The notes below the pieces were generated by a model. That model had not been told where the DNA came from. It did no database searches and was given only the letters and a program-made list of their open reading frames with translations. Position numbers and translations under genes: made by a program. Shown here in pieces: positions 34,001 to 58,000 of a stretch of 64,000 bases of DNA. Origin of the DNA: a bacterium (lineage in GTDB: Bacteria > UBA9089 > CG2-30-40-21 > SBAY01); contig JBFLXS010000002.1 of NCBI GenBank assembly GCA_040755795.1, forward strand, positions 5,109 to 69,108, read 5' to 3'. Positions within the stretch are counted from its first letter, which is position 1. Every line of letters starts with the position of its first letter.

Positions 34001-37000
34001 GCGCAGTTTAGAGTTGATTCTCAACCTTATGGTTCAACTACTGTCATGGCAGTAGATGTTGAGATGGCGTCAACTATCTTCTCTATCTTGCCACAAATTG
34101 TTAATGTTTCACCTACAGAAGGAACAGTAGGAACGATAATTACCTTAGTAGGGTCAGGTTATGGAGCAATAGAAGATGTCCGAATAGATTTTGGAACCAC
34201 TCAAACTATAACTATGGCTAACTCGAATATAGATGGCACATGGACAATTACCTTTACTGTTACCACACAAGGTTATGGGATTACGACTATTAAAGCTACT
34301 GGTTCAAATACACAGGTATCAAGTATTAATTACTTTAAGATAACGCCACAAGTTGTTAGTGTCAGTCCAGAAATAGGGACAGTGGGAACAATAATTACTA
34401 TCCGTGGTACCGGGTTTATAGGCACCGAAGAAATATACATTAACTTTGGAATAACACAAACTATTACTACTACAATTTCAGATATAGAAGGGAGCTTTAC
34501 CACTACATTTACCATAGATACTCAGGTCTTTGGAACGACTACCATAGCCGCTCGTGGTAAGGTTTCTGATACAGAAGTGGTTAATTACTTCAAGATTATT
34601 CCAGAAATTTACTATGTTACTCCAACAGAAGGTAGTGTGGGAACAATACTGAGGATATCAGGTTCTGGATATAGTGGTTCGGAGAATGTTGTTATAGATT
34701 TGGGTAAGAGAGCAACCGTATCTATAGCCAATACCTCTAATTTTGGCACATTCACTATCGCCTTTACGGTTGAAATCCAACCTTATGGAACAAAGACTAT
34801 TGTTGGAAAGGGAATAGATTCTGCCGCAAAGGCTATTAATTACTTCCGTATTATACCTAATATTACAAATATAATTCCGTCAGCTTCACCTGCTAAGGGC
34901 ACAGTTGGAGCAATAGTAGTAGTAGAAGGTGATGGTTTTGGTGAGAATGAACAATTATTTGTTGAATTTGGCACTACTCATACCATTACTATAACTACAA
35001 GTAGTGAATGGGGGACATTCTCAGCTACCTTTACTGTTGATACTCAACCTTATGGCACGACTACGGTTAAGGTGATAGGTTCAACTACGCCATTAACTGC
35101 TGTCGATTATTTCACTATTCTACCTAATATCTTTGTTACCTCTCCTTCAAAAGGCACGGTAGGAACAATAATTACTATTTGTGGTAATGGTTATGCCGCA
35201 TCAGAAGAAGTGGTAATACAATTTGGCATTACAAAGACTATAACTATTACTTTGACAGATTTGATAGGGTCATGGACAACTACCTTTACAATAAATACAC
35301 AACCTTATGGTTCTACAACAATTATAGCGACAGGATTAAATTGTGGGACTTCTGCCAATAGCTCTTTCAAGATACTACCAGAATTATGGTCAGTGGTGCT
35401 TGCGGAAGGGACAGTAGGGACAATCGTTACAATCCGAGGCACAGGTTATGCGGCGAATGAGTTAGTTTACATCCACTTTGGGACAACAAATACAATCACA
35501 ATGACCTCAGCCGCAATTGAAGGTAGTTTCACGACGACATTTACCATTGATACACAACCTTATGGTTCGACGACAATCACTGCGGTAGGCTTGAGTTCAG
35601 GTGAGGCGATAAACGACTTCAAGATAGTGCCAGAATTATGGTCAGTGGAGTTAGGTGAAGAGACAGTAGGGACAATCGTCACAATCCGAGGCACCGGCTA
35701 TGCGGCGAATGAGTTAATTTACATTCACTTTGGCACAACAAATACAATCACGACGACCTCAGCCGCAATCGAAGGTAGTTGGACTACAACATTTACTATT
35801 GATACACAACCGTATGGTTCGACAACGATAACAGCACTAGGCTTGAATTCAGGTAGTGCCATAAATGACTTCAAGATATTACCAGAGTTATGGTCAGTAG
35901 TGCTTGCCGAAGGGACAGTTGGGACAATCGTCACAATCCGAGGCACCGGCTATGCGGCGAATGAGTTAATTTACATTCACTTTGGCACGACAAAGACAAT
36001 TACGACGACCTCAGCCGCAATCGAAGGTAGTTTTACGACGACATTCACTGTTGATACACAAGGATTTGGCTCGACGACAATAACCGCCGTAGGATTGAAT
36101 TCCGGCAGTGCGATAAATTACTTCAAGATAACTGTTGAGTTATATTCAGTAACACCAACAGAGGGCACAGTAGGGACAATAATTACGATTAAAGGCACAG
36201 GGTATAAAGCCAATGAAGGAATAAGGATAGACTTTGGAGTTAAATCAACAATAACTACAACACAAGCCGATGGAACAGGTAGCTGGACAGTTACCTTTAC
36301 CATCGATACACAGCCTTATGATAGAACTACAATCAAGGCAACAGGATTAACAAGTGGTGGAGAAGGGATTAATTACTTCAAGATACTGCCAGAATTATGG
36401 TCAGTGGTGCTTGCCGAAGGGACAGTTGGGACAATTGTCACGATACGAGGCACCGGGTATGCGGCGAATGAATTAGTTTATATTCACTTTGGCACAACAA
36501 AGACGATTACAACGACCTCAGCCGCAAGCGAAGGTAGTTTCACAACGACATTTACCATTGATACACAACCGTATGGTTCGACGACAATCACTGCGGTAGG
36601 TCTGAGTTCAGGTAGTGCCATAAATGACTTCAAGATATTGCCAGAGTTATGGTCAGTAGTATTAGCCGAAGGGACAGTAGGGACAATTGTGACGATACGA
36701 GGCACAGGGTATGCGGCGAATGAATTAGTTTATATCCACTTTGGCACAACAAAGACAATTACGACGACCTCAGTCGCAATCGAAGGTAGTTGGACTACAA
36801 CATTTACTATTGATACGCAACCGTATGGTTCGACGACGATAACAGCGGTTGGCTTGAATTCAGGCGAGGCGATAAATGATTTCAAGATATTGCCAGAGTT
36901 ATGGTCAGTGGTGTTAGCCGAAGGGACAATAGGGACAATTGTGACAATCCGAGGCACAGGTTATGCGGCGAATGAGTTAGTTTATATCCACTTTGGGACA

Positions 37001-40000
37001 ACGAAGACAATTACGATGACCTCAGCCGCAATCGAAGGTAGTTTCACGACGACATTTACCATTGATACACAACCTTATGGTTCGACGACAATCACTGCGG
37101 TAGGTCTGAGTTCAGGTAGTGCCATAAATGACTTCAAGATACTGCCAGAGTTATGGTCAGTGGTGTTAGCCGAAGGGACAGTTGGGACACTAGTAACGAT
37201 ACGAGGCACCGGCTATGCGGCGAATGAGTTAGTTTATATCCACTTTGGGACGACAAAGACAATTACGACGACCTCAGCCGCAATCGAAGGTAGTTTCACG
37301 ACGACATTTACCATTGATACACAACCTTATGGTTCGACGACAATCACTGCGGTAGGCTTGAGTTCAGGTGAGGCGATAAACGACTTCAAGATAGTGCTAG
37401 AATTATGGTCAGTGGAGTTAGGTGAAGGGACAGTAGGGACAATCGTCACAATCCGAGGCACCGGTTATGCGGCGAATGAGTTAGTTTATATCCACTTTGG
37501 GACGACAAAGACAATCACGACGACCTCAGCGGCAATCGAAGGTAGTTTCACAACAACATTTACTATTAATACACAACCTTATGGTTCGACAACGATAACA
37601 GCAGTCGGATTGAATTCAGGTAGTGCCATAAATGACTTTAAGATATTACCAGAGTTATGGTCAGTAGTGCTTGCCGAAGGGACAGTTGGGACAGTCGTCA
37701 CAATCCGAGGCACAGGCTATGCGGGGAATGAGTTAATTTACATTCACTTTGGCACGACAAAGACAATTACGACGACCTCAGCCGCAATCGAAGGTAGTTT
37801 CACGACGACATTTACCGTTGATACACAAGGGTTTGGCTCGACGACAATAACCGCCGTAGGATTGAATTCTAACAGTGCCATCAATTACTTCAAGATAACT
37901 GTTGAGTTATATTCAGTAACACCAACAGAGGGAACAGTAGGAACAATAATTACGATTAAAGGCACAGGGTATAAAGCCAATGAAGGGATAAGGATAGACT
38001 TTGGAGTTAAATCAACAATAACTACAACACAAGCCGATGGAACAGGTAGCTGGACAGTTACCTTTACTATCGATACACAGCCTTATGATAGAACTACAAT
38101 CAAGGCAACAGGATTAACAAGTGGTGGAGAAGGGATTAATTACTTCAAGATACTGCCAGAGTTATGGTCAGTAGTGCTTGCCGAAGGGACAGTTGGGACA
38201 ATTGTCACGATACGAGGCACCGGTTATACTGCAAATGAGTTAATTTATATTCACTTTGGGACAACAAAGACAATCACAACAACCTCAGCCACAATTGAAG
38301 GTAGTTTCACGACGACATTTACCATTGATACACAACCGTATGGTTCGACGACGATAACAGCAGTTGGATTGAATTCAGGTAGTGCGATAAATAACTTCAA
38401 GATACTGCCAGAGTTATGGTCAGTGGTGCTTGCGGAAGGGACAGTTGGGACAATCGTAACAATACGAGGCACCGGCTATGCGGCAAATGAGTTAGTTTAC
38501 ATTCACTTTGGCACAACAAAGACAATCACGACGACCTCAGCCGCAATCGAAGGTAGTTGGACTACAACATTTACTATTGATACGCAACCGTATGGTTCGA
38601 CGACGATAACAGCAGTTGGATTGAATTCAGGTAGTGCGATAAATAACTTCAAGATACTGCCAGAGTTATGGTCAGTGGTGCTTGCGGAAGGGACAGTTGG
38701 GACAATCGTAACAATCCGAGGCACAGGGTATGCGGCGAATGAGTTAGTTTACATTCACTTTGGCACAACAAAGACAATCACGACAACCTCAGCCGCAATC
38801 GAAGGTAGTTTCACGACGACATTTACCATTGATACACAACCTTATGGTTCGACGACGATAACAGCAGTTGGATTGAATTCAGGTAGTGTGATAAATTACT
38901 TTAAGATACTGCCAGAATTATGGTCAGTGGAGTTAGCCGAAGGGACAGTAAGAACAATCGTGATAATCCGAGGCACCGGCTATGCGGCGAATGAGTTAGT
39001 TTATATTCACTTTGGGACAACAAAGACGATTACAACGACCTCAGCCGCAATCGAAGGTAGTTTCACAACAACATTTACCATTGATACACAACCGTATGGT
39101 TCGACGACAATCACTGCGGTAGGCTTGAGTTCAGGTGAGGCGATAAACGACTTCAAGATACTGCCAGAATTATGGTCAGTGGTGCTTGCGGAAGGGACAG
39201 TAGGGACAATCGTTACAATCCGAGGCACCGGCTATGCGGCGAACGAGTTAATTTACATTCACTTTGGCACAACAAATACAATCACGACGACCTCAGCCGC
39301 AATCGAAGGTAGTTTCACAACGACATTTACTATTGATACACAACCGTCTGGTTCGACAACGATAACAGCAGTAGGCTTGAATTCAGGTAGTGCCATAAAT
39401 GACTTCAAGATACTGCCAGAATTATGGTATGTCAATCCAGCCGAAGGGACAGTTGGTAAGATAGTAACGATTCGAGGGACAGGATATAGTGCCAATGAGT
39501 TAATTTACATTCACTTTGGCACAACAAAGACAATCACAACGACCTCAGCCGCAATCGAAGGTAGTTTCACGACGACATTCACTGTTGATACACAAGGATT
39601 TGGCTCGACGACAATAACCGCTGTAGGATTGAATTCCGGCAGTGCGATAAATTACTTCAAGATAACTGTTGAGTTATATTCAGTAACACCAACAGAGGGC
39701 ACAGTAGGAACAATAATTACGATTAAAGGCACAGGTTATAAAGCCAATGAAGAAGTAAGGATAGACTTTGGCACAACATCAAGTATTACCACAACACAGG
39801 CAGATGGAACAGGTAGCTGGACAGTTACCTTTACCATCGATACACAACCTTATGATAGAACTACAATCAAGGCAACAGGATTAACAAGTGGTGGAGAAGG
39901 GATTAATGACTTCAAGATACTACCAGAGTTATGGTCAGTGGTATTAGCCGAAGGGACAGTTGGAACAATCGTAACGATTCGAGGCACAGGGTATGCGGCG

Positions 40001-43000
40001 AATGAGTTAGTTTACATCCACTTTGGCACAACGAAGACAATCACGACGACCTCAGCCGCAATCGAAGGTAGTTTCACAACGACATTTACTATTGATACAC
40101 AACCGTATGGTTCGACGACGATAACAGCGGTTGGCTTGAATTCAGGTAGTGCGATAAATAACTTCAAGATACTGCCAGAATTATGGTCAGTAGTGCTTGC
40201 CGAAGGGACAGTTGGGACAATCGTCACAATCCGAGGCACCGGCTATGCGGCGAATGAGTTAGTTTACATTCACTTTGGCACAACAAAGACAATCACGACA
40301 ACCTCAGCCGCAATCGAAGGTAGTTTCACGATGACATTTACTATTGATACACAACCTTATGGTTCGACGACAATCACTGCGGTAGGTCTGAGTTCAGGTA
40401 GTGCCATAAATAACTTCAAGATAGTGCCAGAATTATGGTCAGTGGAGTTAGCCGAAGGGACAGTAGGGACAATCGTTACAATCCGAGGCACCGGCTATGC
40501 GGCGAATGAGTTAGTTTACATTCACTTTGGCACAACAAAGACAATCACGACAACCTCAGCCGCAATCGAAGGTAGTTTCACGACAACATTTACCATTGAT
40601 ACACAACCGTATGGTTCGACAACGATAACAGCGGTTGGCTTGAATTCAGGTGAGGCGATAAATGACTTCAAGATACTGCCAGAATTATGGTCAGTGATGC
40701 TTGCCGAAGGGACAGTAGGAACAATCGTAACGATACGAGGCACAGGTTATGCGGCGAATGAGTTAGTCTATATCCACTTTGGGACGACAAAGACAATCAC
40801 GACGACTTCAGCCTCAATCGAAGGTAGTTTCACAACAACATTCACTATTGATACCCAATCTTATGGTTCGACAACAATTACTGCGGTAGGTTTAAATTCA
40901 GGTGAGGCGATAAATGACTTCAAGATACTACCAGAATTATGGTCAGTGGTATTAGCCGAAGGGACAGTAGGGACAATCGTTACAATCCGAGGCACAGGCT
41001 ATGCGGCGAATGAATTAGTTTACATTCACTTTGGGACAACAAAGACAATTACAACAACCTCAGTGGCAATCGAAGGTAGTTTCACAACGACATTTACCAT
41101 TGATACACAACCTTATGGTTCGACGACAATCACTGCGGTAGGTCTGAGTTCAGGTAGTGCCATAAATAACTTCAAGATACTGCCAGAATTATGGTCAGTG
41201 GTGTTAGGTGAAGGGACAGTTGGGACAATCGTAACAATCCGAGGCACAGGCTATGCGGCGAATGAATTAGTTTACATTCACTTTGGGACAACAAAGACAA
41301 TTACAACAACCTCAGTGGCAATTGAAGGTAGTTTCACAACAACATTTACTATTGATACACAACCTTATGGTTCAACAACAATCACTGCGGTAGGTCTGAG
41401 TTCAAGTAGTGCGATAAATAACTTCAAGATACTGCCAGAATTATGGTCAGTGGTGTTAGCCGAAGGGACAGTTGGGACAATCGTAACAATCCGAGGCACC
41501 GGTTATGCGGCGAATGAGTTAGTTTACATCCACTTTGGGACAACAATTACAATCACCACGACCTCAGCCGCAATCGAAGGTAGTTTCACAACGACATTCA
41601 CTATTGATACGCAACCGTATGGTTCGACGACGATAACAGCGGTCGGGTTGAATTCAGGTAGTGCCATAAATGACTTCAAGATACTGCCAGAGTTATGGTC
41701 AGTGGTGCTTGCAGAAGGGACAGTAGGGACAATCGTAACGATACGAGGCACAGGCTATGCGGCGAATGAGTTAATTTACATTCACTTTGGCACAACAAAG
41801 ACAATCACCACAACCTCAGCCGCAATCGAAGGTAGTTTCACGACAACATTTACTATTGATACACAACCGTATGGTTCGACAACGATAACAGTAGTTGGAT
41901 TGAATTCAGATAGTGCCATAAATGACTTCAAGATATTACCGGAATTATGGTCTGTAACACCAAAAGAAGGGACAGTAGGGACAATCGTAACGATACGAGG
42001 CACAGGCTATGCGGCGAATGAGTTAATTTACATTCACTTTGGCACGACAAAGACAATTACGACGACATCAGCCGCAATCGAAGGTAGTTTCACGACGACA
42101 TTCACTGTTGATACACAAGGATTTGGCTCGACGACAATAACCGCCGTAGGATTAAATTCCGGCAGTGCGATAAATTACTTCAAGATAACTGTTGAGTTAT
42201 ATTCAGTAACACCAACAGAGGGCACAGTAGGGACAATAATTACGATTAAAGGCACAGGTTATAAAGCCAATGAAGAAGTAAGGATAGACTTTGGCACAAC
42301 ATCAAGTATTACCACAACACAGGCAGATGGAACAGGTAGCTGGACGGTGACATTTACCATAAATACACAACCTTATGATACAACTACAATCAAGGCAACA
42401 GGATTAACAAGTGGTGGAGAAGGGATTAATTACTTCAAGATACTGCCAGAGTTATGGTCAGTGGTATTAGCCGAAGGGACAGTAGGAACGGTAGTTACAA
42501 TACGAGGCACCGGCTATGCGGCAAATGAGTTAGTTTACATTCACTTTGGGACAACAAAGACAATCACGACGACCTCAGCCGCAATCGAAGGTAGTTTCAC
42601 AACGACATTTACCATTGATACACAACCGTATGGTTCGACAACGATAACAGCAGTTGGCTTGAATTCGGGTAGTGCGATAAATAACTTCAAGATACTGCCA
42701 GAATTATGGTCAGTGGTGCTTGCGGAAGGAACAGTTGGGACAATCGTTACAATCCGAGGCACCGGCTATGCGGCGAATGAGTTAGTTTATATTCACTTTG
42801 GCACAACAAAGACAATCACGACGACCTCAGCCGCAATCGAAGGTAGTTTCACAACGACATTTACCATTGATACACAACCTTATGGTTCGACGACAATCAC
42901 TGCGGTAGGTCTGAGTTCAGGTAGTGCCATAAATGACTTCAAGATATTACCGGAATTATGGTCTGTGGTGCTTGCGGAAGGAACAGTGGGGACAATCGTA

Positions 43001-46000
43001 ACGATACGAGGCACAGGTTATGCGGCGAATGAGTTAATTTATATCCACTTTGGCACAACAAATACGATAACGACAACATCTGTAGATGGACAGGGTAGCT
43101 GGACAACCACCTTTACCATAGATACACAACCTTATGGCTCTACAACCATAACAGCGGTAGGGTTGAGTTCAGGTCAGGCAAGCAATGACTTTAAGATACT
43201 GCCAGAAATATGGTCAGTGGAGTTAGCCGAAGGGACAGTAGGAACAATTGTTACGATACGAGGCACAGGCTATGCGGCGAATGAATTAGTTTATATTCAC
43301 TTTGGGACAACAAAGACAATCACAACGACCTCAGCCGCAATCGAAGGTAGTTTCACGACGACATTTACCGTCGATACACAACCTTATGGTTCGACGACAA
43401 TCACTGCGGTAGGCTTGAGTTCAAGTTCTGCAATAAATGACTTCAAGATACTGCCCGAATTATGGTCAGGGGTGCTTGCCGAAGGGACAGTAGGGACAAT
43501 CGTAACGATACGAGGCACCGGTTATGCGGCGAATGAGTTAGTTTATATCCACTTTGGCACAACAAAGACAATTACCACGACCTCAGCCTCAATCGAAGGT
43601 AGTTTCACGACGACATTTACCATTGATACGCAACCGTATGGTTCGACAACGATAACAGCGGTTGGATTGAATTCAGGTAGTGCCATAAATGACTTCAAGA
43701 TATTACCGGAATTATGGTCTGTAACACCAAAAGAAGGGACAGTAGGGACAATCGTAACGATACGAGGCACAGGCTATGCGGCGAATGAGTTAATTTACAT
43801 TCACTTTGGCACAACAAAGACAATTACCACGACCTCAGCCTCAATCGAAGGTAGCTGGACGACGACATTCACTGTTGATACACAGGGATTTGGCTCAACG
43901 ACAATAACCGCTGTAGGATTAAATTCCGGCAGTGCGATAAATTACTTCAAGATAACTGTTGAGTTATATTCAGTAACACCAACAGAGGGCACAGTAGGAA
44001 CAATAATTACGATTAAAGGCACAGGTTATAAAGCCAATGAAGAAGTAAGAATAGACTTTGGCACAACATCAAGTATTACTACGACGCAGGCAGATGAAAC
44101 AGGTAGCTGGACAGTTACATTTACCATAAATACACAACCTTATGATACAACTACAATCAAGGCAACAGGATTAACCTGTCAGGGAGAAGGGATTAATTAC
44201 TTCAAGATACTGCCAGAGTTATGGTCAGTGGTGTTAGCCGAAGGGACAGTAGGGACAATCATAACGATACGAGGCACAGGCTATGCGGCGAATGAGTTAG
44301 TTTATATTCACTTTGGCACAACAAAGACAATCACGACGACCTCAGCCGCAATCGAAGGTAGCTTCACGACGACATTTACCATCGATACGCAACCTTATGG
44401 TTCGACAACGATAACAGCGGTTGGATTGAATTCAGGTAGTGCCATAAATGACTTCAAGATACTGCCAGAGTTATGGTCAGTAGTATTAGCCCAAGGGACA
44501 GTAGGGACAATTGTAACGATACGAGGTACAGGGTATGCGGCGAATGAGTTAGTCTATATCCACTTTGGCACAACAAAGACAATCACGACGACCTCAGCGG
44601 CAATCGAAGGTAGTTTCACGACGACATTTACCATCGATACGCAACCTTATGGTTCGACGACAATCACTGCGGTAGGTCTGAGTTCAGGTAGTGCCATAAA
44701 TGACTTCAAGATACTGCCAGAATTATGGTCAGTGGTGTTAGCCGAAGGGACAGTAGGGACAATCGTTACAATCCGAGGCACAGGCTATGCGGCGAATGAG
44801 TTAATTTACATCCACTTTGGGACAACAAAGACGATTACCACGACCTCATCGGCAATCGAAGGGAGCTGGACCACAACATTTACTGTTAATACACAACCAT
44901 ATGGTTCAACAACAATTACTGCGGTAGGTTTGAATTCAGGCGAGGCGATAAATGACTTTAAGATAATACCAGAATTATGGTCTGTAACTCCAACTTCCGG
45001 AACAGTAGGTACCAGTATTACTATAAGAGGCACGGGTTATTGTGGGACAGAGGTAGTTTATATCCACTTTGGTATAACCAATACGATTACTACGGTTGTT
45101 TCAGATATAGAGGGTAGTTGGACAATTACATTTACTGCTGATGCTCAACCTTATGCAACTACTACTATAATAGCAGGAGGACAGCATAATGCACATCAGG
45201 CAAGCAATTTCTTCTCTATGAAGAGTAGGATTGTTGAGATAGTGCCACCTAAAGGTGCTATTGGACTTGAAATTACAGTTTATGGTGATGGATTTGGTGC
45301 CTCAGAATCTGTCCGGATTGATTTTAGCGACAAACCGACATTAACTTATGTTACTTCTCAACGAAATGGGCAATTTACCGCTATCTTTACTGTTCCTGAT
45401 GTATCTGCTAATCAAACAGTAACGGCTACAGGTCTTACAACGGGTGCGGAAGGTATAGATACATTTACGGTTATACCTGGTATCTCATTTATATCACCTA
45501 CCTTTGGGACTATTGGAACTATAGTTGATATTAGAGGAAGTGGTTTTGGTGTAGGAAATGAAATAAGAATAGATTTTGGCACAACGAGAAGTATTGTCGT
45601 CCTAACTGCTGATACGAGTGGAAGATTTGTTACTACCTTTACTGTTGATACTCAACCTTCAGGTTCAACTACTGTTATGGTCCAGGATGTGTTAACTTCA
45701 GCTTTTGAAGATAGAATATTTGATATTATTGGAAGAATTACCTATACTACACCTCTCATTGGAACTGTTGGGACAACTATTACCGTGCAAGGAGATGGTT
45801 ATGGAGCTACCGAGACAATACGGATTAGTTTTGGAACAACTACGACTATCGGAACAGCGACTTCAAATGCCGTAGGAACTTATACCGCTATCTTCACCAT
45901 TGATACTCAACCTTATGGAAATACGACTGTGGTAATTAAAGGTTTAACTTCTGGTGAAGAAGAAATAACACAAGTATTTATTATACCTAATATTATTGTA

Positions 46001-49000
46001 GTTACACCTGATAGAGGTAGTGTGGGGACAATAATTACTTTGAAAGGAAATGGATACAAGGCGAATGAAACAGTTCAAATTGACTTTGGTAATTATTCTA
46101 CTATCACTACCACTTCAAGTGATAACATTGGTTCATTTACTACAACCTTTACTATTGATACCCAGAAATATGGTGTTACAACTATTATTGCCAGAGGATT
46201 AGATTCAAGTTATGCTGTTGATGACCTGTTTATTATACCTAATATCATCACCGTTACGCCTTCAATTGGAACTGTGGGAACGATAATAACCGTAGCCGGT
46301 AATGGTTATGGGGCGTCAGAGACAATAACCATTAGTTTTGGAACACATCCAACTATAACGACTACTTCTACGGATGAAATAGGGTCATTCACGACTACCT
46401 TTACGATAGATACCCAGAGATATGGAACAACAACGATTATTGCTACCAATATGAGTTCGGCAGAAGGCTACTTCTTCATTATTCCAAATATAATTAACAT
46501 TACACCTAAGTCTGGAACTGTGGGCACAATAATAACATTGCAAGGTAATGGATTTGGAGCCTCCAAGACTTTAAGCATAGACTTTGGAACTACATCTACT
46601 ATTCAAATTACCTCTACTTATGCCGAAGGCAGCTTTACCACTACCTGGACAATTGATACTCAACCTTATGGTATCACCACTATTACTACCCATGGAAGTA
46701 AGGATGCATCAGGAACATTTACCATCTTACCTAATATCATTCTGATTACACCGAGTTCAGGGACAGTGGGAACGATAATAACCGTGAGAGGAAATGGCTA
46801 TGCCGCATCGGATACGGTAAGAATAGCATTTGGTATCACTCCAACAATTCAATTAGTTTCTACAGAAATATATGGTAGCTTCACTACCACATTTACTATA
46901 GATACTCAACAATATGGCATAACAACGATTGTTGCTCATGGAGATGCACAAGGCATTTCGGCTCAAGGGACTATTAGTATTCAACCCAATATCATTCTTG
47001 TTACACCAACTTCAGGAACCGTAGGAACGATAATAACCTTAAGAGGAAATGGATATTGGGCATCCGAGACAATCAGGGTAGAATTTGGGACTACGCCAAC
47101 TATACAACTAACCTCTACTTATGCAGAAGGTAGTTTCACCACCACATTTACTATAGATACACAACCTTATGGCATAACAACTATTATTGCTCATGGAAAC
47201 GGGATATTATCCGCAGGCACATTAACCATATTACCTAATACCATTTTGATTACACCGAGTTCAGGGACAGTAGGAACGATAATAACTGTGAGAGGGAATG
47301 GATATGAGGCATCGTCGGTAATCAGGGTAGAATTTGGGACTACACCTACAATACAACTAACTTCTACCTATGCCGAAGGCAGCTTTACCACTACATTTAC
47401 TATTGATACACAACCTTATGGCATAACAACTATTATTGCTCATGGAAACTGGATATTAGCAGAAGGGACATTAACCATATTACCTAATATTATTCTGATT
47501 ACACCAGATTCAGGGACAGTAGGAACGATAGTAACATTAAGAGGAAATGGTTATCGGGCATCCGAGAGAATCAGGGTAGAATTTGGGACTACGCCAACAA
47601 TACAGATAACCTCTACCTACGCAGAGGGAAGTTTCACCACCACATTTACCATAGATACACAACAGGCGGGTATAACAACCATTATTGCCTATGGAGACGG
47701 AATATTAGCCGAAGGAACATTAACTGTGTCATCGAATATTGTTCTGGTTACACCAGATTCTGGAACAGTGGGAACAGTAATAACCGTGAGAGGAAATGGA
47801 TTCAGGGCATCAGATACGATAAGGATAGATTTTGGAGTAACTCGAACAATTCAATTAACTTCTACTTATGCCGAAGGGAGCTTTACTACTACATTTACGA
47901 TTGACACGCAAAACTATGGTTCTACAACAATAACAGCATCAGATTTAGATTCACGGCAGGCGGTTAGATACTTTAAGATACTGCCAGAACTTTGGTTTGT
48001 AACTTCAACCGAAGGAACAGTAGGAACTATAGTAACGATAAGAGGGACAGGATATGCGGCGAATGAGTTAGTTTATATCCACTTTGGAACGACAAAGACG
48101 ATAACAACTACATCTTCAGCCAATGAAGGTAGCTTTACCACTACATTTACTATTGATACACAACCTTATGGCTCTACAACCATAACAGCCTTAGGATTAA
48201 GTTCAGATAAGGCAAGCAACTACTTTAAGATACTATCTTCAGTTTATGAAGTTACACCGATTGAAGGGACGGTAGGAACAATCGTTACCATCAGTGGAAT
48301 GGGATATGGGGCGTTCAAAGACATAACCATACATTTTGGCACAACTAATACCATTACTACTACTTCTACGAATATAGCAGGGTCATTTACTACAACATTT
48401 ACCGTAGATACACAACCTTATGGCACGACAACGATAACGGCATTAGGTTCTGTGGCAATTAACCACTTCAAGATACTGCCAGAGTTGTGGTATGTCAATC
48501 CAGCAGAAGGGACAGTAGGTAAGGTAGTAACAATTCGAGGGACAGGCTATGCGGCGAATGAGTTAGTCTATGTCCACTTTGGCACAACTAATACAATAAC
48601 GACAACATCTGTAGATATAGAGGGTAGCTTCACAACAACATTTACCATAGATACACAACCTTATGGCTCTACAACCATAACAGCGGTAGGTTTGAGTTCC
48701 GGTCAGGCAAGCAATGACTTCAAGATACTGCCAGAATTATGGTATGTCAGTCCAGTAGAAGGGACAGGAGGGAGTATAGTAACAATTCGAGGGACAGGCT
48801 ATGCGGCGAATGAGTTAGTCTATATTCACTTTGGCACGACTAACACGATAACAACTACTTCTTCAGCCAATGAAGGTAGTTTCACCACTACATTTACCAT
48901 AGATACACAACCTTATGGTTCTACAACGATTACAGCATTAGGTTTGAGTTCAGATAAGGCAAGTAATTACTTTAAGATACTATCTTCAGTTTATCAAGTT

Positions 49001-52000
49001 ACGCCGACTGAAGGGACGGTAGGGACAATCGTTACCATAAGTGGAATGGGTTATGGGGCGTTCAAAGACATAACCATACATTTTGGCACGACAAACACCA
49101 TTACTACTACTTTATCGAACATAGCAGGTTCATTTACCACTACCTTTACCATAGATACACAACCTTATGGCACGACAACGATAACCGCATTAGGTTCTGT
49201 GGCAATTAACCACTTCAAGATACTGCCAGAGTTGTGGTATGTCAATCCAGCAGAAGGGACGGTAGGTAAGGTAGTAACGATTCGAGGGACAGGATATACG
49301 GCACAGGAATTAGTCTATATCCACTTTGGCACGACCAACACCATAACGACAACATCTGTAGATGAACAGGGTAGCTTCACAACGACATTTACCATAGATA
49401 CACAACCTTATGGCTCTACAACGATAACAGCGTTAGGCTTAAGTTCAGGTCAAGCGATAAATGACTTCAAGATATTGCCAGAATTATGGTCTGTCAATCC
49501 AGCAGAAGGGACAGTAGGGAAGGTAATAACGATTCGCGGGACAGGATATGCGGCACAGGAAACAGTTTACATTCACTTTGGCACGACAAATACGATAACG
49601 ACAGTATCATCCGATGTCCAGGGTAGCTTCACGACTACATTTACCATAGATACACAATCTTATGGCTCTACAACGATAACAGCCGTAGGTTTGAGTTCAG
49701 ATAAGGCTATTAACTACTTTATGATATTATCTTCAGTTTATGAGGTTACGCCAACTGAAGGGACGGTAGGAACAATAGTTACCATCAGTGGAATGGGATA
49801 TGGGGCGTTTAAAGATATAACCATACATTTTGGCACGACCAATACCATTACCACTACCTCATCGAATATAGCCGGTTCATTTACTACTACCTTTACTATA
49901 GATACACAGCCTTATGGGACGACAACGATAATCGCTATAGGTTCTAAGGCAATTAACTATTTCAAGATACTGCCAGAATTATGGTATGTCAATCCAGCAG
50001 AAGGGACGGTAGGTAAGATAATAACGATTCGAGGGACAGGATATGCAGCGAATGAGTTAGTTTATGTTCATTTTGGCACGACTAATACGATAACGACAAC
50101 ATCTGCAGATGTCCAGGGTAGCTTCACCACTACATTTACCATAGATACACAACCTTATGGTTCTACAACTATAACAGCGTTAGGGTTAAGTTCAGGTCAG
50201 GCGAGCAATGACTTCAAGATACTACCAGAATTATGGTCTGTCAATCCAGCAGAAGGAACAGTAGGGAAGGTAGTAACGATTCGAGGGACAGGATATGCGG
50301 CGAATGAGTTAGTCTATATCCACTTTGGGACGACAAAGACGATAACAACTACATCTGCAGATGGACAGGGTAGCTGGACAACAACATTTACCATAGATAC
50401 ACAATCTTATGGTTCTACAACCATAACAGCGGTAGGATTGAATTCAGGTTCAGCTATCAATTATTTCAAGATACTGGTAGAGTTATATTCCATTACACCG
50501 ACAGAAGGAACAGTAGGGACGATAGTTACTATTAAAGGAACAGGATATAACGCTAATGAAGAGATAAGGATAGATTTTGGAGTTAAATCAACGATAACTA
50601 CGACACAAGCAGATGAAACAGGCAGCTGGACAGCTACATTTACCATAGACACGCAACAGTATGGTAGAACAACTATTAAGGCAACTGGATTAACCTGTCA
50701 GGGAGAAGGAATTAACTACTTCAAGATACTGCCAGAATTATGGTATGTTGAGCCAGCAGAAGGAACAGTAGGAAATATCGTAACGATTCGAGGGACAGGC
50801 TATGCGGCGAATGAATTAGTCTATATCCACTTTGGCACAACTAACACGATAACGACTACATCTGTAGATATACAGGGTAGCTTCACCACTACCTTTACCA
50901 TAGATACGCAACCTTATGGCTCTACAACGATAACAGCGTTAGGGTTGAGTTCAGGACAGGCAAGCAATGACTTCAAGATACTGCGAGAATTATGGTCAGT
51001 GGTGCTTGCGGAAGGGACAGTAGGGACAATCGTAACGATACGAGGCACCGGCTATGCGGCAAATGAGTTGATTTATATCCACTTTGGGACAACAAAGACG
51101 ATTACAACGACATCAGCGGCAATTGAAGGTAGTTTCACAACGACATTTACTATTGATACACAACCGTATGGTTCGACGACAATCACTGCGGTAGGTCTGA
51201 GTTCAGGTAGTGCCATAAATAACTTCAAGATACTGCCAGAGTTATGGTCAGTGGTGCTTGCGGAAGGGACAGTAGGAACAATCGTAACGATCCGAGGCAC
51301 CGGTTATGCGGCGAATGAGTTAGTCTATATCCACTTTGGCACAACTAATACTATAACGACTACATCTTCAGATGGACAGGGTAGCTGGACAACAACCTTT
51401 ACCATAGATACACAATCTTATGGCTCTACAACGATAACAGCGTTAGGCTTGAGTTCAGATAAGGCTATTAACTACTTTATGGTATTATCTTCAGTTTATG
51501 AGGTTACGCCAACTGAAGGGACGGTAGGGACGATAGTTACCATCAGTGGAATGGGATTTGGGGCGTTCAAAGATATAACCATACATTTTGGCACGACTAA
51601 TACGATTACGACCACTGTGTCAAATATAGCAGGTTCATTTACCACAACATTTACCATAGATACACAGCCTTATGGCACGACAACGATAATCGCTTTAGGT
51701 TCGAAGGCAATTAACTACTTTAAGATACTGCCAGAATTGTGGTATGTCAATCCAGCAGAAGGGACAGTAGGAAGTATAGTAACGATACGAGGGACAGGGT
51801 ATGCGGCGAATGAGTTAGTTTATATCCACTTTGGCACAACTAATACCATAACAACTACATCTTCAGATATTCAGGGTAGTTTCACCACAACATTTACAAT
51901 TGATACCCAGAATTATGGCTCTACAACCATAACAGCTTTGGGATTAAGTTCAGGCCAGGCTATTAATGATTATAAGATAATGCCAGCTGTCTGGTATGTC

Positions 52001-55000
52001 ATTCCACCAAAGGGAACAGTTGGCAGCACGGTGATGATAAGAGGGACAGGGTATGAAGCCAATGAGTTAGTTTATATCCACTTTGGGACAACAAAGACGA
52101 TAACAACTACATCTGCAGATATAGAAGGTAGCTGGACAACTACATTTACCATAGATACACAACCTTATGGCAGCACAACGATAATCGCATTAGGGTTAAG
52201 TTCAGACAAGGCGACTAATTACTTTATGATTGTTCCAAGATTATGGTATGTGAGTCCAGTAGAAGGGACAGTAGGGAGTGTAGTAACGATTCGTGGAACA
52301 GGATATGCGGCTTATGAGCCAGTAAATATCTTCTTTGGAACTACGGTATTACCTATTATGCAAACCTTAGTAGATGTTGAAGGAAGTTTCACCACGACAT
52401 TTACTGTTGATACACAACCTTATGGCACTACGACGATAGTGGCTACTGGTGTGAATTCTCTTATTCCAGATGCTAATTATTTCAAGATACTGCCAGAATT
52501 ATGGTATGTCAGTCCAGCAGAAGGGACAGTGGGTACGGTAGTAACGATTCGAGGGACAGGCTATGCGGCGAATGAATTAGTCTATATCCACTTTGGCACG
52601 ACTAATACGATAACGACAACATCTGTAGATGGACAGGGTAGCTTCACAACTACATTTACCATAGATACACAATCTTATGGTAGCACAACCATAACAGTCT
52701 TAGGGTTAAGTTCAGGTCAGGCGAGCAATGACTTCAAGATACTGCCAGAATTATGGTCTGTCAATCCAGCAGAAGGGACAGTAGGTAAGATAGTAACGAT
52801 AAGAGGAACAGGCTATGCGGCGAATGAGTTAGTTTATATCCACTTTGGCACAACTAATACCATAACGACTACATCTTCAGCCATAGAAGGTAGCTTTACC
52901 ACTACATTTACCGTAGATACGCAGTCTTATGGTTCTACAACTATTACCGCCGTAGGGTTGAGTTCAGACAAGGCAACTAATTACTTTATGATATTATCTT
53001 CAGTTTATGAGGTTACACCGACTGAAGGAACGGTAGGGACAATCGTTACCATCAGTGGAATGGGATTTGGGGCGTTCAAAGATATAACCATACATTTTGG
53101 CACGACTAAGACGATTACTACTACTTCTTCGGATATAGCCGGTTCATTCACCACTACCTTTACTATAGATACACAACCTTATGGAACGACAACGATAACC
53201 GCTTTAGGTTCGAAGGCAATTAACTACTTCAAGATACTACCAGAATTATGGTATGTTAATCCAGCCGAAGGGACAGTAGGTCAGGTAGTAATGATTCGGG
53301 GGACAGGCTATGCGGCGAATGAGTTGGTCTATATCCACTTTGGCACAGCAAATACAATCACGACGACCTCAGCCGGAATTGAAGGTAGTTTCACGACGAC
53401 ATTTACTATTGATACACAACCTTATGGCTCTACAACCATAACAGCATTAGGTTTGAGTTCAGATAAGGCAATAAATGACTTCAAGATACTGCCAGAGTTA
53501 TGGTCAGTGGTGCTTGCGGAAGGGACAATAGGAACAATCGTAACAATCCGAGGCACCGGCTATGCGGCGAATGAGTTAATTTATATCCACTTTGGCACAA
53601 CAAATACAATCACGACGACCTCAGCGGCAATTGAAGGTAGTTTCACGACGACATTTACTATTGATACACAACCGTATGGTTCGACGACAATCACTGCGGT
53701 AGGTCTGAGTTCAGGTAGTGCCATAAATAACTTCAAGATACTGCCAGAATTATGGTCAGTGGTGTTAGCCGAAGGGACAGTGGGGACAATCGTAACAATC
53801 CGAGGCACCGGCTATGCGGCGAATGAGTTAATTTACATTCACTTTGGCACAACTAATACAATTACGATGACCTCAGCCGCAATCGAAGGTAGTTTCACGA
53901 CGACATTTACTATTGATACACAACCTTATGGCTCTACAACCATAACAGCATTAGGTTTGAGTTCAGATAAGGCAATAAATGACTTCAAGATACTGCCAGA
54001 GTTATGGTCAGTGGTGCTTGCGGAAGGGACAGTTGGAACAATTGTAACGATTCGAGGCACCGGCTATGCGGCGAATGAGTTAATTTACATTCACTTTGGG
54101 ACAACAAAGACAATCACGACGACCTCAGCCGCAATTGAAGGTAGTTTCACGATGACATTTACCATTGATACACAACCTTATGGTTCGACGACGATAACAT
54201 CAGTTGGCTTGCATTCAGGTAGTGCCATAAATGACTTCAAGATATTGCCGGAATTATGGTCTGTAACACCAAAAGAAGGGACAGTTGGGACAATCGTCAC
54301 AATTCGAGGGACAGGATATGCGGCGAATGAGTTAATTTATATCCACTTTGGGACAACAAATACAATCACGACGACCTCATCCGCAATTGAAGGTAGTTTC
54401 ACGACGACATTTACCATTGATACACAACCTTATGGTTCGACGACGATAACAGCGGTTGGATTGAATTCAGGTAGTGCCATAAATGACTTCAAGATACTAC
54501 CAGAATTATGGTCTGTCAGTCCAACAGAAGGGACAGTAGGTAAGATAGTAACAATTCGAGGAACAGGCTATGCGGCGAATGAGTTAATTTACATTCACTT
54601 TGGCACAACTAATACCATAACGACAACATCTGCAGATGGACAGGGTAGCTGGACTACAACCTTTACTATAGATACACAATCTTGTGGCTCTACAATTATT
54701 ACAGCCGTAGGGTTGAGTTCAGGTTCAGCTATCAATTACTTCAAGATAATGGCAGAATTATATTCAGTTACACCGACAGAAGGAACGGTAGGAACTATTG
54801 TTACGATTAGAGGAACAGGGTATTTAGCCAGTGAGCAAATAAGGATAGACTTTGGAGTTAAATCAACGATAACGACAACACAAGCAGATGGAATAGGTAG
54901 TTGGACAGTTACCTTTACCATAGATACCCAGGCCTATGGTAACACTACCATTAAATCTACTGGATTAATATCTCAGGGAGAAGGGATTAACTACTTCAAG

Positions 55001-58000
55001 ATACTACCAGAGTTATGGTCAGTGGTGCTTGCTGAAGGGACAGTAGGAACAATTGTTACAGTCCGAGGCACAGGCTATGCGGCGAATGAGTTGGTCTATA
55101 TCCACTTTGGCACAACTAACACGATAACGACAACATCTGCAGATATAGAAGGTAGCTTCACCACAACATTTACTATTGATACACAACCTTATGGTTCTAC
55201 AACCATAACAGCGTTAGGTTTGAGTTCAGACAAGGCAATAAATGACTTCAAGATACTGCCAGAGTTATGGTCAGTGGTGCTTGCTGAAGGGACAGTAGGA
55301 ACAATTGTTACAATCCGAGGCACAGGCTATGCGGCACAGGAATTAATTTACATCCACTTTGGGACAACAAATACAATCACGACGACCTCAGTCGCAATTG
55401 AAGGTAGTTTCACAACAACATTTACTATTGATACACAACCTTATGGTTCAACGACAATCACTGCGGTAGGTCTGAGTTCAGGTAATGCGATAAATAACTT
55501 CAAGATACTGCCAGAATTATGGTCAGTGGTGTTAGCCGAAGGGACAGTAGGGACAGTAGTGACGATACGAGGCACAGGTTATGCGGCGAATGAATTAATT
55601 TACATTCACTTTGGGACAACAAATACAATTACGACGACCTCAGCCGCAATTGAAGGTAGTTTCACAACGACATTTACTATTGATACACAGCCTTATGGTT
55701 CGACGACGATAACAGCAGTCGGCTTGAATTCAGGTAGTGCGATAAATTACTTCAAGATACTGCCAGAGTTATGGTCAGTGGTGTTAGCCGAAGGGACAGT
55801 GGGGACAGTAGTGACGATACGAGGCACCGGTTATGCGGCGAATGAGTTAATTTACATTCACTTTGGCACAACTAACACGATAACAACAACATCTGCAGAT
55901 GGACAGGGTAGCTGGACAACTACATTTACCATAGATACTCAACGCTATGGTTCAACAACCATTACTGCCGTAGGTTTGAGTTCTTCATCTGCTATTAATT
56001 ACTACAAGATAACTCCTGATTTATGGTATGTAAGTCCAACGCAAGGAACGGTTGGAACAATTGTTACCATTAGAGGCACGGGTTACTCAGTTGGTGATGT
56101 CCGAATAGACTTTGGAACGACAAGAACTATCACCACTACACAGGCGGTTGCAGAAGGTAGTTTCACCACTACATTTACTGTGAATATTCAACCTGTAGGC
56201 AAGACGACTATTGCCGCAGTGGGCATTAATGGCGAAGGAAATATTAACTTCTTTACCATCACAGGTGGAATTAGAATATCACCTACCACTGGGACAGTAG
56301 GAATAGTAGTAACGGTGTTTGGTAATGGATATGCTTCAACAGAGCAGGTGAGGGTTGATTTTGGCACCACTCCTACCCTGTCAATAGTTACAGCGGAGCC
56401 AGTAGGGACATTTATTGCTATGTTCACTGTTACCACTCAACCTTATGGCACGACAACGGTTACGGCTACTGGACCAATAACAGGGTCTGCGATAGACTTC
56501 TTTGTCATTACACCTGAATTATTTAGTGTTATACCAAATGCAGGGACAGTAGGTAGCATAGTAATAATTCGAGGCACAGGTTATGCGGCGAATGAGAGAG
56601 TTTATATCCACTTTGGGACAACTAATACGATAACTACTACATCTTCAGACATAGAAGGAAGCTGGACAACAACATTTACTATAGATACACAACCTTACGG
56701 TTCTACAACCATAATAGCGTTAGGCTTGAGTTCAGGTTCAGCTATTAACTATTGCAAGATACTGCCAGAGTTATGGTCAGTAGTGCTTGCGGAAGGGACA
56801 GTAGGGACAATCGTCACAATCCGAGGCACAGGCTATACGGCGAATGAGTTAGTTTATATTCACTTTGGCACAACTAATACGATAACCACTACATCTGCAG
56901 ATATAGAGGGTAGCTGGACAACTACATTTACTATAGATACTCAACCTTATGGTTCTACAACGATAACCGCCATAGGGTTAAGTTCGGGTTCAGCCATAAA
57001 TGACTTCAAGATACTGCCTGAATTATGGTTCGTCAATCCAGCAGAAGGAACAGTAGGCAAGATAGTGATGATAAGAGGAACAGGCTATGCGGCGAATGAG
57101 GCAGTTTATATCCACTTTGGCACAACAAAGACGATAACAATGGTATCTTCAGTTATTGAAGGTAGTTTCACAACAACATTTACCATAGATACACAACCTT
57201 ATGGCACAACGACCATTGTTGCCTCAGGATTGAATTCAGGAGAGGCGATTAATTACTTCAGAGTCCTGCCGGAGGTATTCAGTGTTACTCCGAAAGAAGG
57301 CACAGTGGGAACAATAGTTACTATTCGTGGGACAGGATATGGTGCAAATAAGATAATTAATGTTCACTTTGGAACAACAAATACTATTACTACGGCGAGT
57401 TCAGATATAATTGGTTCATTTACCGCAACATTTACTGTGGATACGCAACCTTATGGCACAACAACTATTGTTGCTACAGGTTGTTCGGCAATTAACTACT
57501 TCAAGATATTACCAGATGTTTGCTATGTTACGCCTACATCAGGGACTGTGGGAAGTATTGTGACGGTTCGTGGAACAGGCTATGCGGCTTCAGAAGAGGT
57601 CTATGTCCATTTTGGCACAACAAAGACGATTACAACTACGGTTTCTGCTCAAGAAGGTAGCTTCACCACGACATTTACTGTGGATACACAAGTTTATGGC
57701 ACAACAACAATTATTGCGGTAGGATTAGGTTCAGGAGAGGCGATTAATTATTATAGGATAACTCCTGATTTGTGGTATGTCAATCCACAACAAGGCACAG
57801 TAGGAACAATTGTTACGATTAAAGGCACAGGTTATACCCCTGGTGAGGTGCGAATAGACTTTGGCACAACTCAAACTATTACTACTACTCAGGCAGATAA
57901 TACAGGTAGTTTGACGACGACATTTACCATAGATACGCAACCATTAGGTATAACAACTATTGCGGCAGCTGGTGCTAATGCTGAAAGAAATATTAACTTC

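Follow-up and report, generated by a model that had tools for sequence, protein, structure and literature searches.

A young, mosaic block of Ig-like repeats in a giant gene of an uncultivated bacterium, probably shaped by misaligned recombination and short-tract gene conversion

How does a bacterial gene come to carry some 20 kb of tandem units with a 252-bp period, and what keeps these units alike? The question is raised by a block at 35–56 kb of the analyzed 64,000-nt stretch of DNA (hereafter, the window), which the initial annotation described as about 82 near-identical units produced by recent expansion and concerted evolution. The block lies within a single reading frame that fills the window, and the main features of this frame are as follows (window coordinates).

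2–64000, + strand: giant gene, partial; a single ORF of 21,333 codons with 0 stops, open at both ends of the window
50–62521, + strand: 246 Ig-like (E-set, IPT/TIG-like) units, back-to-back, 81–105 aa, typically ~84 aa
22100–28132, + strand: separate, older-type homogenised block, 24 units long, in which a period of seven units (CDAEBBF) occurs twice; TRF call at 23,120–28,071
62522–64000, + strand: region outside the unit array, towards the C-terminus, carrying ‘YxYRxxYxDxDNxxP...YP’-type modules

Across the 64-kb window, frame +2 contains no stops, and the remaining five frames contain 855–2,595; no complete ORFs of at least 150 aa were found within the window. The giant ORF has GC12 of 0.46 vs GC3 of 0.24–0.41. 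Across the 246 units, the first part of the consensus reads IxxxIxxVTPxxGTVGTIVTxxGNGYxAxExIxIxFGTTxTI, and the last part ...GSFTTTFTIDTQPYGxTTI. The units of the early window are far less alike than those discussed below, as initially proposed, with mean nucleotide identity of 52% at 1–22 kb. In the older-type block, corresponding units are 86–98% identical, and GC3 (0.285) is at the background level; here lies also the longest exact repeat of the window (186 bp, copies at 24,830 and 26,588). By row sums, tandem repeats that TRF detects make up about 45% of the window. The region following the units is similar to residues 3468–3922 of a relative, L007 (31% identity, E 9e-51), that is, to the stretch after L007's own unit array; beyond L007, the homologue search and Pfam at threshold gave nothing for this region.

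The structure model of one unit has pLDDT of 93.5; the three-unit model has pLDDT of 97.1 and pTM of 0.85, with 2-residue linkers joining the last strand of a unit to the first strand of the next one. The units of the main family of the block, denoted G, are hence predicted from the models to be folded domains forming a rigid rod. A unit scores 18.6–18.9 bits against Pfam TIG (PF01833), below the gathering threshold of 20.9. The Thr–Gln ester-bond domain (Pfam PF18202, TQ), suggested by a Pfam hit and by the nearly invariant Gln62, was rejected as the family assignment. The TQ match (40.6 bits) is summed over repeats, with no single stretch passing, and spans profile positions 67–98 of 127; the HxDxxDxxQ motif has 0 occurrences in the giant ORF; and the PDB ester-bond domain 7ui8 is matched at E 0.82 only, the PDB alignment otherwise yielding nothing relevant.

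Neither LPxTG or TM-like segments nor RTX nonapeptides were found within the 21,333 residues in view, the gene ends being outside the window and its 3' end beyond nt 64,000; hence, secretion, anchoring, and the distal domain are seen only through relatives at most 54% identical. In relatives P0026 and P0024, units start directly after an N-terminus resembling a signal peptide; in L007, units are followed by C-terminal modules and, at the very end, by a T9SS type A sorting domain (TIGR04183; 24.6 bits vs the curated cut-off of 23). By analogy, the giant protein is probably secreted, with its array probably serving as an extracellular stalk. Close relatives are missing from the searched data: the best match in the protein database has 54% identity, genome contigs gave only three fragments (at most 50%), and metagenome contigs only two loci (at most 52%).

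The 252-bp-period array is called at 35,366–55,983 with 81.9 copies (TRF-type repeat call), and HMM segmentation yields 82 units, U139–U220, at 35,372–56,008. An array with 82 units is thus indeed present; however, the units are not near-identical, and comprise heterogeneous classes (34 G, five H, five I, smaller J, K, L, M, and N classes) and 12 island units. The block consists of two younger sub-arrays of 38 and 32 units, with a 3-kb, 12-unit divergent island between them.

35372–44962, + strand: sub-array 1, 38 units, U139–U176 (clustering, identity by lag)
36128–36382, + strand: the first of five I units, 85 aa, punctuating sub-array 1
37,895–38,149; 39,662–39,916; 42,185–42,439; 43,952–44,206, + strand: I units 2–5
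44963–47977, + strand: divergent island, 12 units, U177–U188, splitting the block
47978–56008, + strand: sub-array 2, 32 units, U189–U220 (clustering, identity by lag)

The order of units in sub-array 1 (GGHI GGGGGHI GGGGGHI GGGGGGGGHI GGJGGHI GGG) reveals a higher-order repeat of seven units (1,767 bp), with one variant of 10 units, and unit identity peaks at lag 7 (0.878 vs about 0.80). The five I units are 90–98% identical to each other and about 62% identical to G, and their GC3 (0.26) is at the background level. The island units have best matches of 55–84% and mean pairwise identity of 58%; several belong to the ‘NIILITP...GNGY’ type, as at 22–28 kb. In sub-array 2 (KLMKLM.LMN.MGJL...MKL.GGGGN.JGG. 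in the same notation), a K-L-M three-unit period is followed by a mixture of K, L (81 aa), M, N, and J with seven G units; identity by lag peaks here at 3 and 6. The best matches of these G units to G units of sub-array 1 are 88–94%, equal to the internal closeness of the latter.

The initial claim that neighbouring units are more than 90–95% identical does not hold: the mean nucleotide identity of the 81 adjacent pairs in the block is 75%, none reaches 95%, seven reach 90%, and 36 fall below 70%. The closest pair in the block is formed by two I units seven positions apart (98.4%). Within the G family, mean pairwise identity is 88.6% for DNA and 92.9% for protein; the G units are 84 aa long, the longest run of neighbours at least 80% identical spans nine domains (in U139–U176), and 73% of adjacent pairs in U139–U176 reach this level. 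The third codon position carries 69% of the G-unit variation, with pS of 0.33, pN of 0.04, and pN/pS of 0.13; purifying selection on the G-family protein is strong.

GC3 of the G family is 0.415 vs 0.276 in the background, and the polymorphism spectrum implies that it is falling towards about 0.29; judging by both, the G family is younger than the remaining array. The expansion is recent only in comparison with the remaining units, as the synonymous difference between G units has already reached 33%. The high GC3, which points to a GC3-rich founder unit, was not explained by GC-biased gene conversion: the frequencies of derived alleles polarised as W→S and as S→W do not differ (Mann–Whitney p 0.62), and the excess of S→W changes implies decay towards the background GC3, so that an ongoing bias was rejected.

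Mosaic tests for the 34 G units, based on 74 informative sites, reveal that 67% of informative site pairs are incompatible in the four-gamete test, with the fraction increasing from 0.39 at distances below 6 nt to 0.70 above 30 nt; linkage among G units is lost within about 30 nt. In the PHI test, the observed value is reached in 0/2000 permutations, or in 1/1000 with one site per codon (z from –4.4 to –5.7), and Rmin is 31. Distances between 5'-halves and 3'-halves of G units are uncorrelated (r = –0.09), all four combinations of multi-site haplotype blocks are seen in five of six block pairs, and 37 pairs of G units have long concordant runs, as compared to 5.6 expected. One long recent conversion tract was considered and rejected, as the global maximum concordant run is reached in 18/200 permutations and is not significant; the signal thus comes from numerous short tracts. 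These statistics agree with the initial description of variation as linked blocks in varying combinations. The four strings quoted there as example haplotypes are all present (3–19 matches each, 0 expected by chance), but the two pairings, F with LSS and W with LNS, are not fixed: F+LSS occurs 15 times, F+LNS 14, W+LNS four, and W+LSS 0.

Simple nearest-neighbour duplication lacking a shared mosaic is not observed, as the G–G identity is 0.88–0.90 at every lag, without nearest-neighbour structure. Moreover, in the closest two 7-unit copies the I unit differs at 4/255 sites, and positional G pairs at 18–28/252 sites (Fisher p 1.3e-6), that is, 5–6 times more; for 90% of the differences between positional G pairs, the allele occurs elsewhere in the G family. 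Given the mosaic statistics, the 7-unit and 3-unit periods, and this copy comparison, unequal crossing-over and gene conversion, as originally suggested, are the best explanation.

We consider it probable that this part of a giant fibre stalk arose by blockwise amplification of the G family via misaligned recombination, followed by short-tract conversion under purifying selection. The block would then be the youngest part of the stalk in a giant, putatively secreted fibre protein, in which 246 or more Ig-like domains follow one another with rigid linkage. The G family, together with its derivatives (H, J, K, L, M, and N), would have been amplified in 7-unit and 3-unit steps by misaligned homologous recombination between repeats (unequal crossing-over). 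Later, the copies would have swapped many short tracts by gene conversion, with roughly 10–30 nt of linkage, shuffling a common pool of mostly synonymous variants, while purifying selection would have kept the G protein identity at about 93%. Lengths of the units in the block range from 243 to 258 nt and are all multiples of 3, so that misaligned recombination keeps the frame; in-frame variation of the array length between cells of the population is plausible, while phase variation, also proposed initially, has no support. The longest in-register exact match between G units has the median of 32 nt; hence, recombination today may be slow.

A rather unlikely elaboration assigns a function to this architecture: the I domain at every seventh (once tenth) position might act as a folding and recombination insulator, conversion and selection might tune the identity, and the result might be a stalk of about 1 micrometre with tunable length. 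If true, runs of up to nine near-identical adjacent domains would be tolerated, while DNA identity of about 89% would allow for occasional in-frame length changes and, being intermediate, would avoid rapid RecA-mediated collapse.

The mosaic could also have come mainly from homologous recombination, possibly misaligned, between diverged alleles of different strains. Strain mixtures are common in natural populations of uncultivated bacteria, and four-gamete failures and short linkage blocks look identical under both models; however, the variants are common to paralogous units in one gene copy, 34 units across the 3-kb island, and hence non-allelic exchange is needed at some stage, whichever molecule donated. 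As the main source of the mosaic, exchange between strains is unlikely.

Still less likely is an assembly or polishing artefact, be it expansion of the array by an assembler loop or a mosaic that stems from mis-phasing of reads, or from polishing with short reads, across repeat copies or co-existing strains. Repeat arrays are notorious for misassembly, the source is evidently uncultivated and missing from the searched collections, and the relatives are MAG fragments on 1–7-kb contigs, which break at such arrays. Here, however, all 82 units of the block have distinct sequences, no 150-mer of the block recurs anywhere in the window, and exact repeats within the block reach at most 147 bp, which leaves no room for a looped duplicate. 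The reading frame stays open over all 21,333 codons, and the third-position share of variation together with the low pN/pS forms a biological signature. Linkage decays at a scale far under the read or k-mer lengths relevant to mis-phasing, and majority-vote polishing of multi-mapped reads would be expected to remove variants, rather than leave intermediate-frequency combinations.

Successive duplication with no recombination, the incompatibilities being homoplasy at a limited number of synonymous sites, is highly improbable. The pS value is indeed high enough for multiple hits, and in a divergence-matched, strongly transition-biased null without recombination 36–40% of site pairs are already incompatible; but the simulated maximum is 47.5%, well short of the observed fraction. 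Homoplasy is distance-independent, yet the observed incompatibility climbs with distance, and the null PHI z is about 0 (minimum –2.55); the half-unit correlation expected under this null, r of about 0.27, is not seen, nor is nearest-neighbour structure, and blocks of 2–4 linked substitutions are found in all four combinations. Equally hard to credit is convergent constraint on old units (the same protein need plus codon preference) in place of recent ancestry and homogenisation: it would fit the low pN/pS and the distinct GC3 of the G family, but synonymous sites are much closer within G than could be expected from ordinary units, only 52% identical overall, I units inside the block retain the background GC3, expression-linked codon bias is equal among units of one gene, and the elevated GC3 is decaying rather than maintained.

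Blockwise amplification with subsequent short-tract conversion yields a quantitative picture of giant stalk growth and upkeep, combining block duplication, conversion in very short tracts, and strong protein constraint. This is a known mode of evolution for repeat-rich surface proteins, not a new one, in a very large instance. The lineage is known only from fragmented MAGs, with relatives split into 1-kb contigs at these arrays, so that such genes stay unseen in short-read assemblies; the locus is well suited for long-read population data on repeat-number change.

Multi-unit periods over a monomer repeat are found in titin and nebulin super-repeats and in satellite higher-order repeats, all of them eukaryotic systems. 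The 7-unit and 3-unit periods are likewise the footprint expected of multi-unit unequal crossing-over; however, the giant gene is bacterial, and conversion seems to have largely wiped the positional correspondence of G units between copies. Giant genes of other uncultivated bacteria (West-Roberts et al., 2023, bioRxiv 10.1101/2023.11.21.568195; Omnitrophota survey, bioRxiv 10.64898/2026.06.07.730766) resemble this one, longer than 64 kb, in being probably extracellular and repeat-rich, and in being hidden by assembly fragmentation. Most of the giants described there have multi-enzyme or HEAT/TPR/dockerin/TSP3 architectures, in which a single Pfam family reaches about 41 copies at the most, and in the Omnitrophota survey (bioRxiv 10.64898/2026.06.07.730766) nucleotide-level tandem repeats are mostly dissolved; here, in contrast, almost the entire protein is built from one Ig-like domain, and tandem repeats persist over the share of the window given above (~45%).

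Among adhesins, BIg-extender proteins (LapA/Lap, 6xi3; the Marinomonas primoryensis ice-binding protein region II, 4p99; Salmonella SiiE, 2yn3) have only 15–20% identity to the units. Such type 1-secreted giant adhesins are characterised by RTX nonapeptides, a T1SS C-terminal signal, and BIg extender domains rigidified by calcium, whereas the giant gene has no RTX nonapeptides in view and its relative has a T9SS-type C-terminal sorting domain; a calcium-binding acidic linker motif is, judging by the sequence, not evident in the giant gene. From the IPT-TIG stalks of fibrillar adhesins (Monzon et al., 2021, PMC8286594; PF01833) the units differ in scoring below the TIG threshold, and no adhesive domain was found alongside them in the window. 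Periscope Proteins, such as SasG, Aap, Rib, Sgo_0707 (SHIRT), CdrA, and Esp, have tandem arrays of folded domains that exceed 50 residues, are 80% or more identical in protein sequence, and are highly identical in DNA; the arrays form a rod-like stalk between a cell-surface anchor and a functional domain exposed at the opposite end, and violate the rule of less than about 50% identity between adjacent domains of one chain; their copy number is thought to change through intragenic recombination, the reported maximum being more than 40 repeats (Whelan et al., 2021, PNAS, PMC8201768). The giant gene shares with them G units of 84 aa with 93% protein identity, runs of up to nine domains, and a modelled rod. 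It differs in that its G units are less alike in DNA (89%) than the repeats of those Periscope proteins that vary most; homogenisation extends over only about a third of its 246-unit, otherwise divergent array; the host is uncultivated and environmental; and strain-to-strain length variation, by which Periscope Proteins are defined, is for the giant gene a plausible expectation. Among known kinds, the Periscope stalks of fibrillar adhesins, variable in length, come closest, and the giant gene, far exceeding the cultured-pathogen examples behind the Periscope idea, looks like an unusually large case.

The whole 64,000 bases form a single reading frame: frame +2 has no stops in 21,333 codons, versus 855 to 2,595 stops in the other five frames of the 64-kb window, hence no ORF of at least 150 aa is contained wholly within the window. 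As this frame is open at both ends, the repeat block at 35,372–56,008 lies in the interior of a giant gene of more than 64 kb, both ends of which are outside the window. No antisense stretch stays open for longer than the 184 codons at 55387–55938 (minus strand), inside the block; rather than being a gene, this stretch most likely reflects the repetition of units whose antisense strand has few stops. Segmentation with an HMM built from the window's own repeat units yields 246 contiguous units of 81–105 aa, each one Ig-like domain, from nucleotide 50 to 62,521; non-unit sequence is confined to the final 1.5 kb. The features discussed here, all on the forward strand, are as follows (letters denote unit classes obtained by clustering).

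22100–28132, forward: second, independent homogenised block with a seven-unit period, classes CDAEBBF twice, about 1,758 bp
35,372–44,962, forward: sub-array 1, 38 units, GGHI GGGGGHI GGGGGHI GGGGGGGGHI GGJGGHI GGG
44,963–47,977, forward: island of 12 divergent units, best matches 55–84%
47,978–56,008, forward: sub-array 2, 32 units, a K-L-M three-unit period, then K, L, M, N, and J units plus seven G units
62522–64000, forward: post-array module region, homologous (E 9e-51) to the region following the units of L007, a relative on a metagenome contig

The post-array module (~110–140 aa, with a motif like 'YTYRIRYYDFDNDDPLPGYPKV') belongs to no Pfam family; its type recurs about ten times in L007 (10441–14781) and is present in P0037, a relative found by protein profile search. 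Unit 114 of the array (28910–29224) has 105 aa instead of the usual ~85, includes some 20 inserted residues ('...PDDSIRIDFGTTDNGIGVGMDPFTPVPEWPKASAGG...'), and scores much lower with the unit HMM (37.7 bits).

Tandem Repeats Finder places 81.9 copies of a 252-bp period at 35,366–55,983, and the HMM segmentation assigns 82 units (U139–U220) to 35,372–56,008. The block of about 82 units described in the initial annotation is therefore real, its four quoted haplotype strings are all present (3–19 matches each, 0 expected by chance), and the mean nucleotide identity of 52% among units at 1–22 kb agrees with its figure. The near-identity of the units, with neighbors said to exceed 90–95%, fails, because the block has internal structure, being composed of distinct unit classes and a divergent island: of 81 adjacent pairs none reaches 95%, seven are at least 90%, and 36 are below 70% identical (mean 75%), and no two of the 82 units are identical. 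Units of the main family G and of its close variant H have 84 aa; I units have 85 aa and are only ~62% identical to G. The 34 G units show mean identities of 88.6% (DNA) and 92.9% (protein), the seven from sub-array 2 matching those of sub-array 1 as closely as the latter match one another.

Each of the 34 G units measures exactly 252 nt, and variation among them is strongly mosaic, as the annotation had proposed. Of their sites, 110 vary and 74 are informative, with 51 informative ones in third codon positions; the four-gamete test is failed by 67% of informative site pairs, the fraction rising from 0.39 at spacings below 6 nt to 0.70 beyond 30 nt. The observed PHI statistic is below all 2000 site permutations, and the signal is retained with one site per codon (1/1000 permutations). 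The minimum number of recombination events within 252 bp is 31, and unit distances in the 5′ half do not correlate with those in the 3′ half (r = −0.09). Among haplotype blocks A, C, D, and E, each defined by two to four linked substitutions, which makes parallel mutation implausible, five of six pairs show all four combinations. In a GENECONV-style test, concordant runs are unusually long in 37 unit pairs (p ≤ 0.01; 5.6 expected) and no single tract is globally significant; the mosaic signal thus comes from many short tracts. Divergence-matched simulation on the inferred tree without recombination, with a strong transition bias, falls short of the data: 36–40% incompatible pairs (maximum 47.5%) against 67%, PHI z near 0 (minimum −2.55) against −4.4 to −5.7, and a half-to-half r of ~0.27 against −0.09. 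Simple nearest-neighbor duplication without mosaicism is not seen either, since G–G identity is flat along the array, at 0.88–0.90 for every lag.

It is very improbable that the array and its mosaic were created by the assembly. The longest exact repeat within the block is only 147 bp, each of its 150-mers occurs only once in the window, and exact copies of a unit are absent; the frame is unbroken across 64 kb; the variation carries a clear signature of selection; and linkage decays over ~30 nt, far below the scale of read or k-mer mis-phasing.

The simplest reading of the block is duplication of multi-unit segments by misaligned recombination, followed by conversion among G copies. Units of sub-array 1 resemble each other most at a lag of 7 (identity 0.878 versus ~0.80), and sub-array 2 shows identity maxima at lags 3 and 6. 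In the two most similar seven-unit copies, compared base by base, I shows 4 differences in 255 sites and H shows 12, as opposed to 18–28 in 252 sites for the five same-position G pairs (Fisher p = 1.3e-6); for 90% of these G differences both alleles already occur in other G units. Seven-unit blocks would thus have been duplicated, one copy being lengthened to ten units, and subsequent conversion among the many G copies would have erased positional correspondence, while I units, with few conversion partners, may have stayed near their state at duplication. Of the mechanism suggested initially, conversion and unequal crossing-over are supported and length variation of the fibre would be plausible; phase variation is not supported, since every unit is a multiple of three nucleotides long.

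The expansion had also been called recent, which is overstated. Relative to the remaining array the G family is young, but not in absolute terms: its units have diverged at 33% of synonymous sites and 4% of non-synonymous ones (pN/pS 0.13), and their protein is under strong constraint. GC content stays level along the array at the first two codon positions (0.45–0.47), while GC3 is 0.415 in G units versus 0.276 ± 0.050 in 114 divergent units, which supports the relative youth of the family. GC3 is 0.36–0.44 in G, H, K, L, and M units (35372–56008) and 0.24–0.29 elsewhere, with background levels in I units within the block (0.26) and in the separate homogenised block at 22–28 kb (0.285). When G polymorphisms are polarised with 17 outgroup units, 18 W→S and 30 S→W changes imply an equilibrium GC3 of ~0.29, equal to the background value, so the family derives from a GC3-rich founder and is relaxing toward equilibrium. 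Ongoing GC-biased gene conversion is not supported, derived alleles of the two types sharing one frequency distribution (p = 0.62). In the 22100–28132 block, corresponding units are 86–98% identical; no exact repeat in the window is longer than the 186-bp one that this block holds, at 24,830 and 26,588.

Pfam TIG matches the unit below threshold (18.6–18.9 bits, cut-off 20.9), and the match of Pfam TQ to the window protein is partial and repeat-summed; a motif scan of this protein finds no RTX, LPxTG, ester-bond, or transmembrane motifs. If each domain is taken to be about 4 nm long, as assumed from known Ig-like domains, 246 domains would span roughly 1 μm and the 82-unit block about one third of that. 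Gln of the 'DTQ' motif at unit position 62 (e.g., 38585–38587) is conserved in 242 of 246 units, being as invariant as the structural glycines, which is unusual for a loop residue of an Ig-like domain; a link to Thr–Gln ester-bond domains did not hold, the window having no ester-bond motif. Position 10 ('VTP'; e.g., 38429–38431) is Pro in 200 units and Leu in 41 of 246, and the G and H units examined read 'SVVLAEG' here; Pro10 to Leu looks like a substitution peculiar to the family, close to the junction between domains and at a site that otherwise hardly varies. The window protein contains 20.7% threonine and only 0.2% cysteine; glycosylation may occur at its Thr-rich strands ('TTTFT', 'TITTT'), or these may just follow from beta-strand propensity.

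In 5.8 billion sequences, identity to the closest proteins does not exceed 54%; almost all of these are partial fragments on contigs of 1–7 kb, mostly from Candidatus Desantisbacteria MAGs. Two relatives have a signal-peptide-like N-terminus followed directly by units; several start close to a contig end and run off the contig. L007, on a 23-kb contig, has a 4,914-aa ORF with 41 units, whose nucleotide identity (mean 53%, maximum 70%) indicates no homogenised block; its post-unit region, homologous to 62,522–64,000, is followed by a C-terminal T9SS type A sorting domain (TIGR04183, NCBIfam; 24.6 bits, cut-off 23). In an exhaustive profile search of 1.84 billion representative proteins, 8,294 cluster representatives contain the unit family; among the 150 best matches listed, the largest arrays have 75 and 65 units, so the 246 units of the window are more than threefold the largest of these. 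Adjacent domains are 40–52% identical in most relatives. In P0093 (6,156 aa), another profile-search relative, 35 of 64 units have a twin at ≥95% protein identity, only at lags 2–8, with adjacent domains at most 71% identical. In P0037, which also has NHL-like and beta-propeller-like regions, the last three units are near-identical and located exactly where the sequence stops, probably an assembly break. Homogenised blocks thus recur in this class of Ig-like-unit proteins and are one likely cause of its fragmentation in short-read assemblies.

The closest described concept for the block is that of Periscope Proteins, surface proteins whose stalk is a tandem array of folded domains with high mutual similarity; they are recognised by repeats of >50 aa with ≥80% identity, their domain number differs between strains, presumably through intragenic recombination, and they break the rule that adjacent domains are less than ~50% identical (Whelan et al., 2021; PMC8201768). 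The G block agrees with this class in sequence (84 aa, 92.9% protein identity) and, by prediction, in forming a rod; the defining feature of the class is strain-to-strain variation in number, and the likeness here lies in sequence and predicted rod. Compared with described giant genes of uncultivated bacteria, the gene is unusual in consisting almost entirely of one Ig-like domain and in keeping nucleotide-level tandem structure over ~45% of the window (summed Tandem Repeats Finder rows). It is not a new mechanism but a very large addition to an already known kind, of interest mainly for its scale, clear conversion signal, and lineage.
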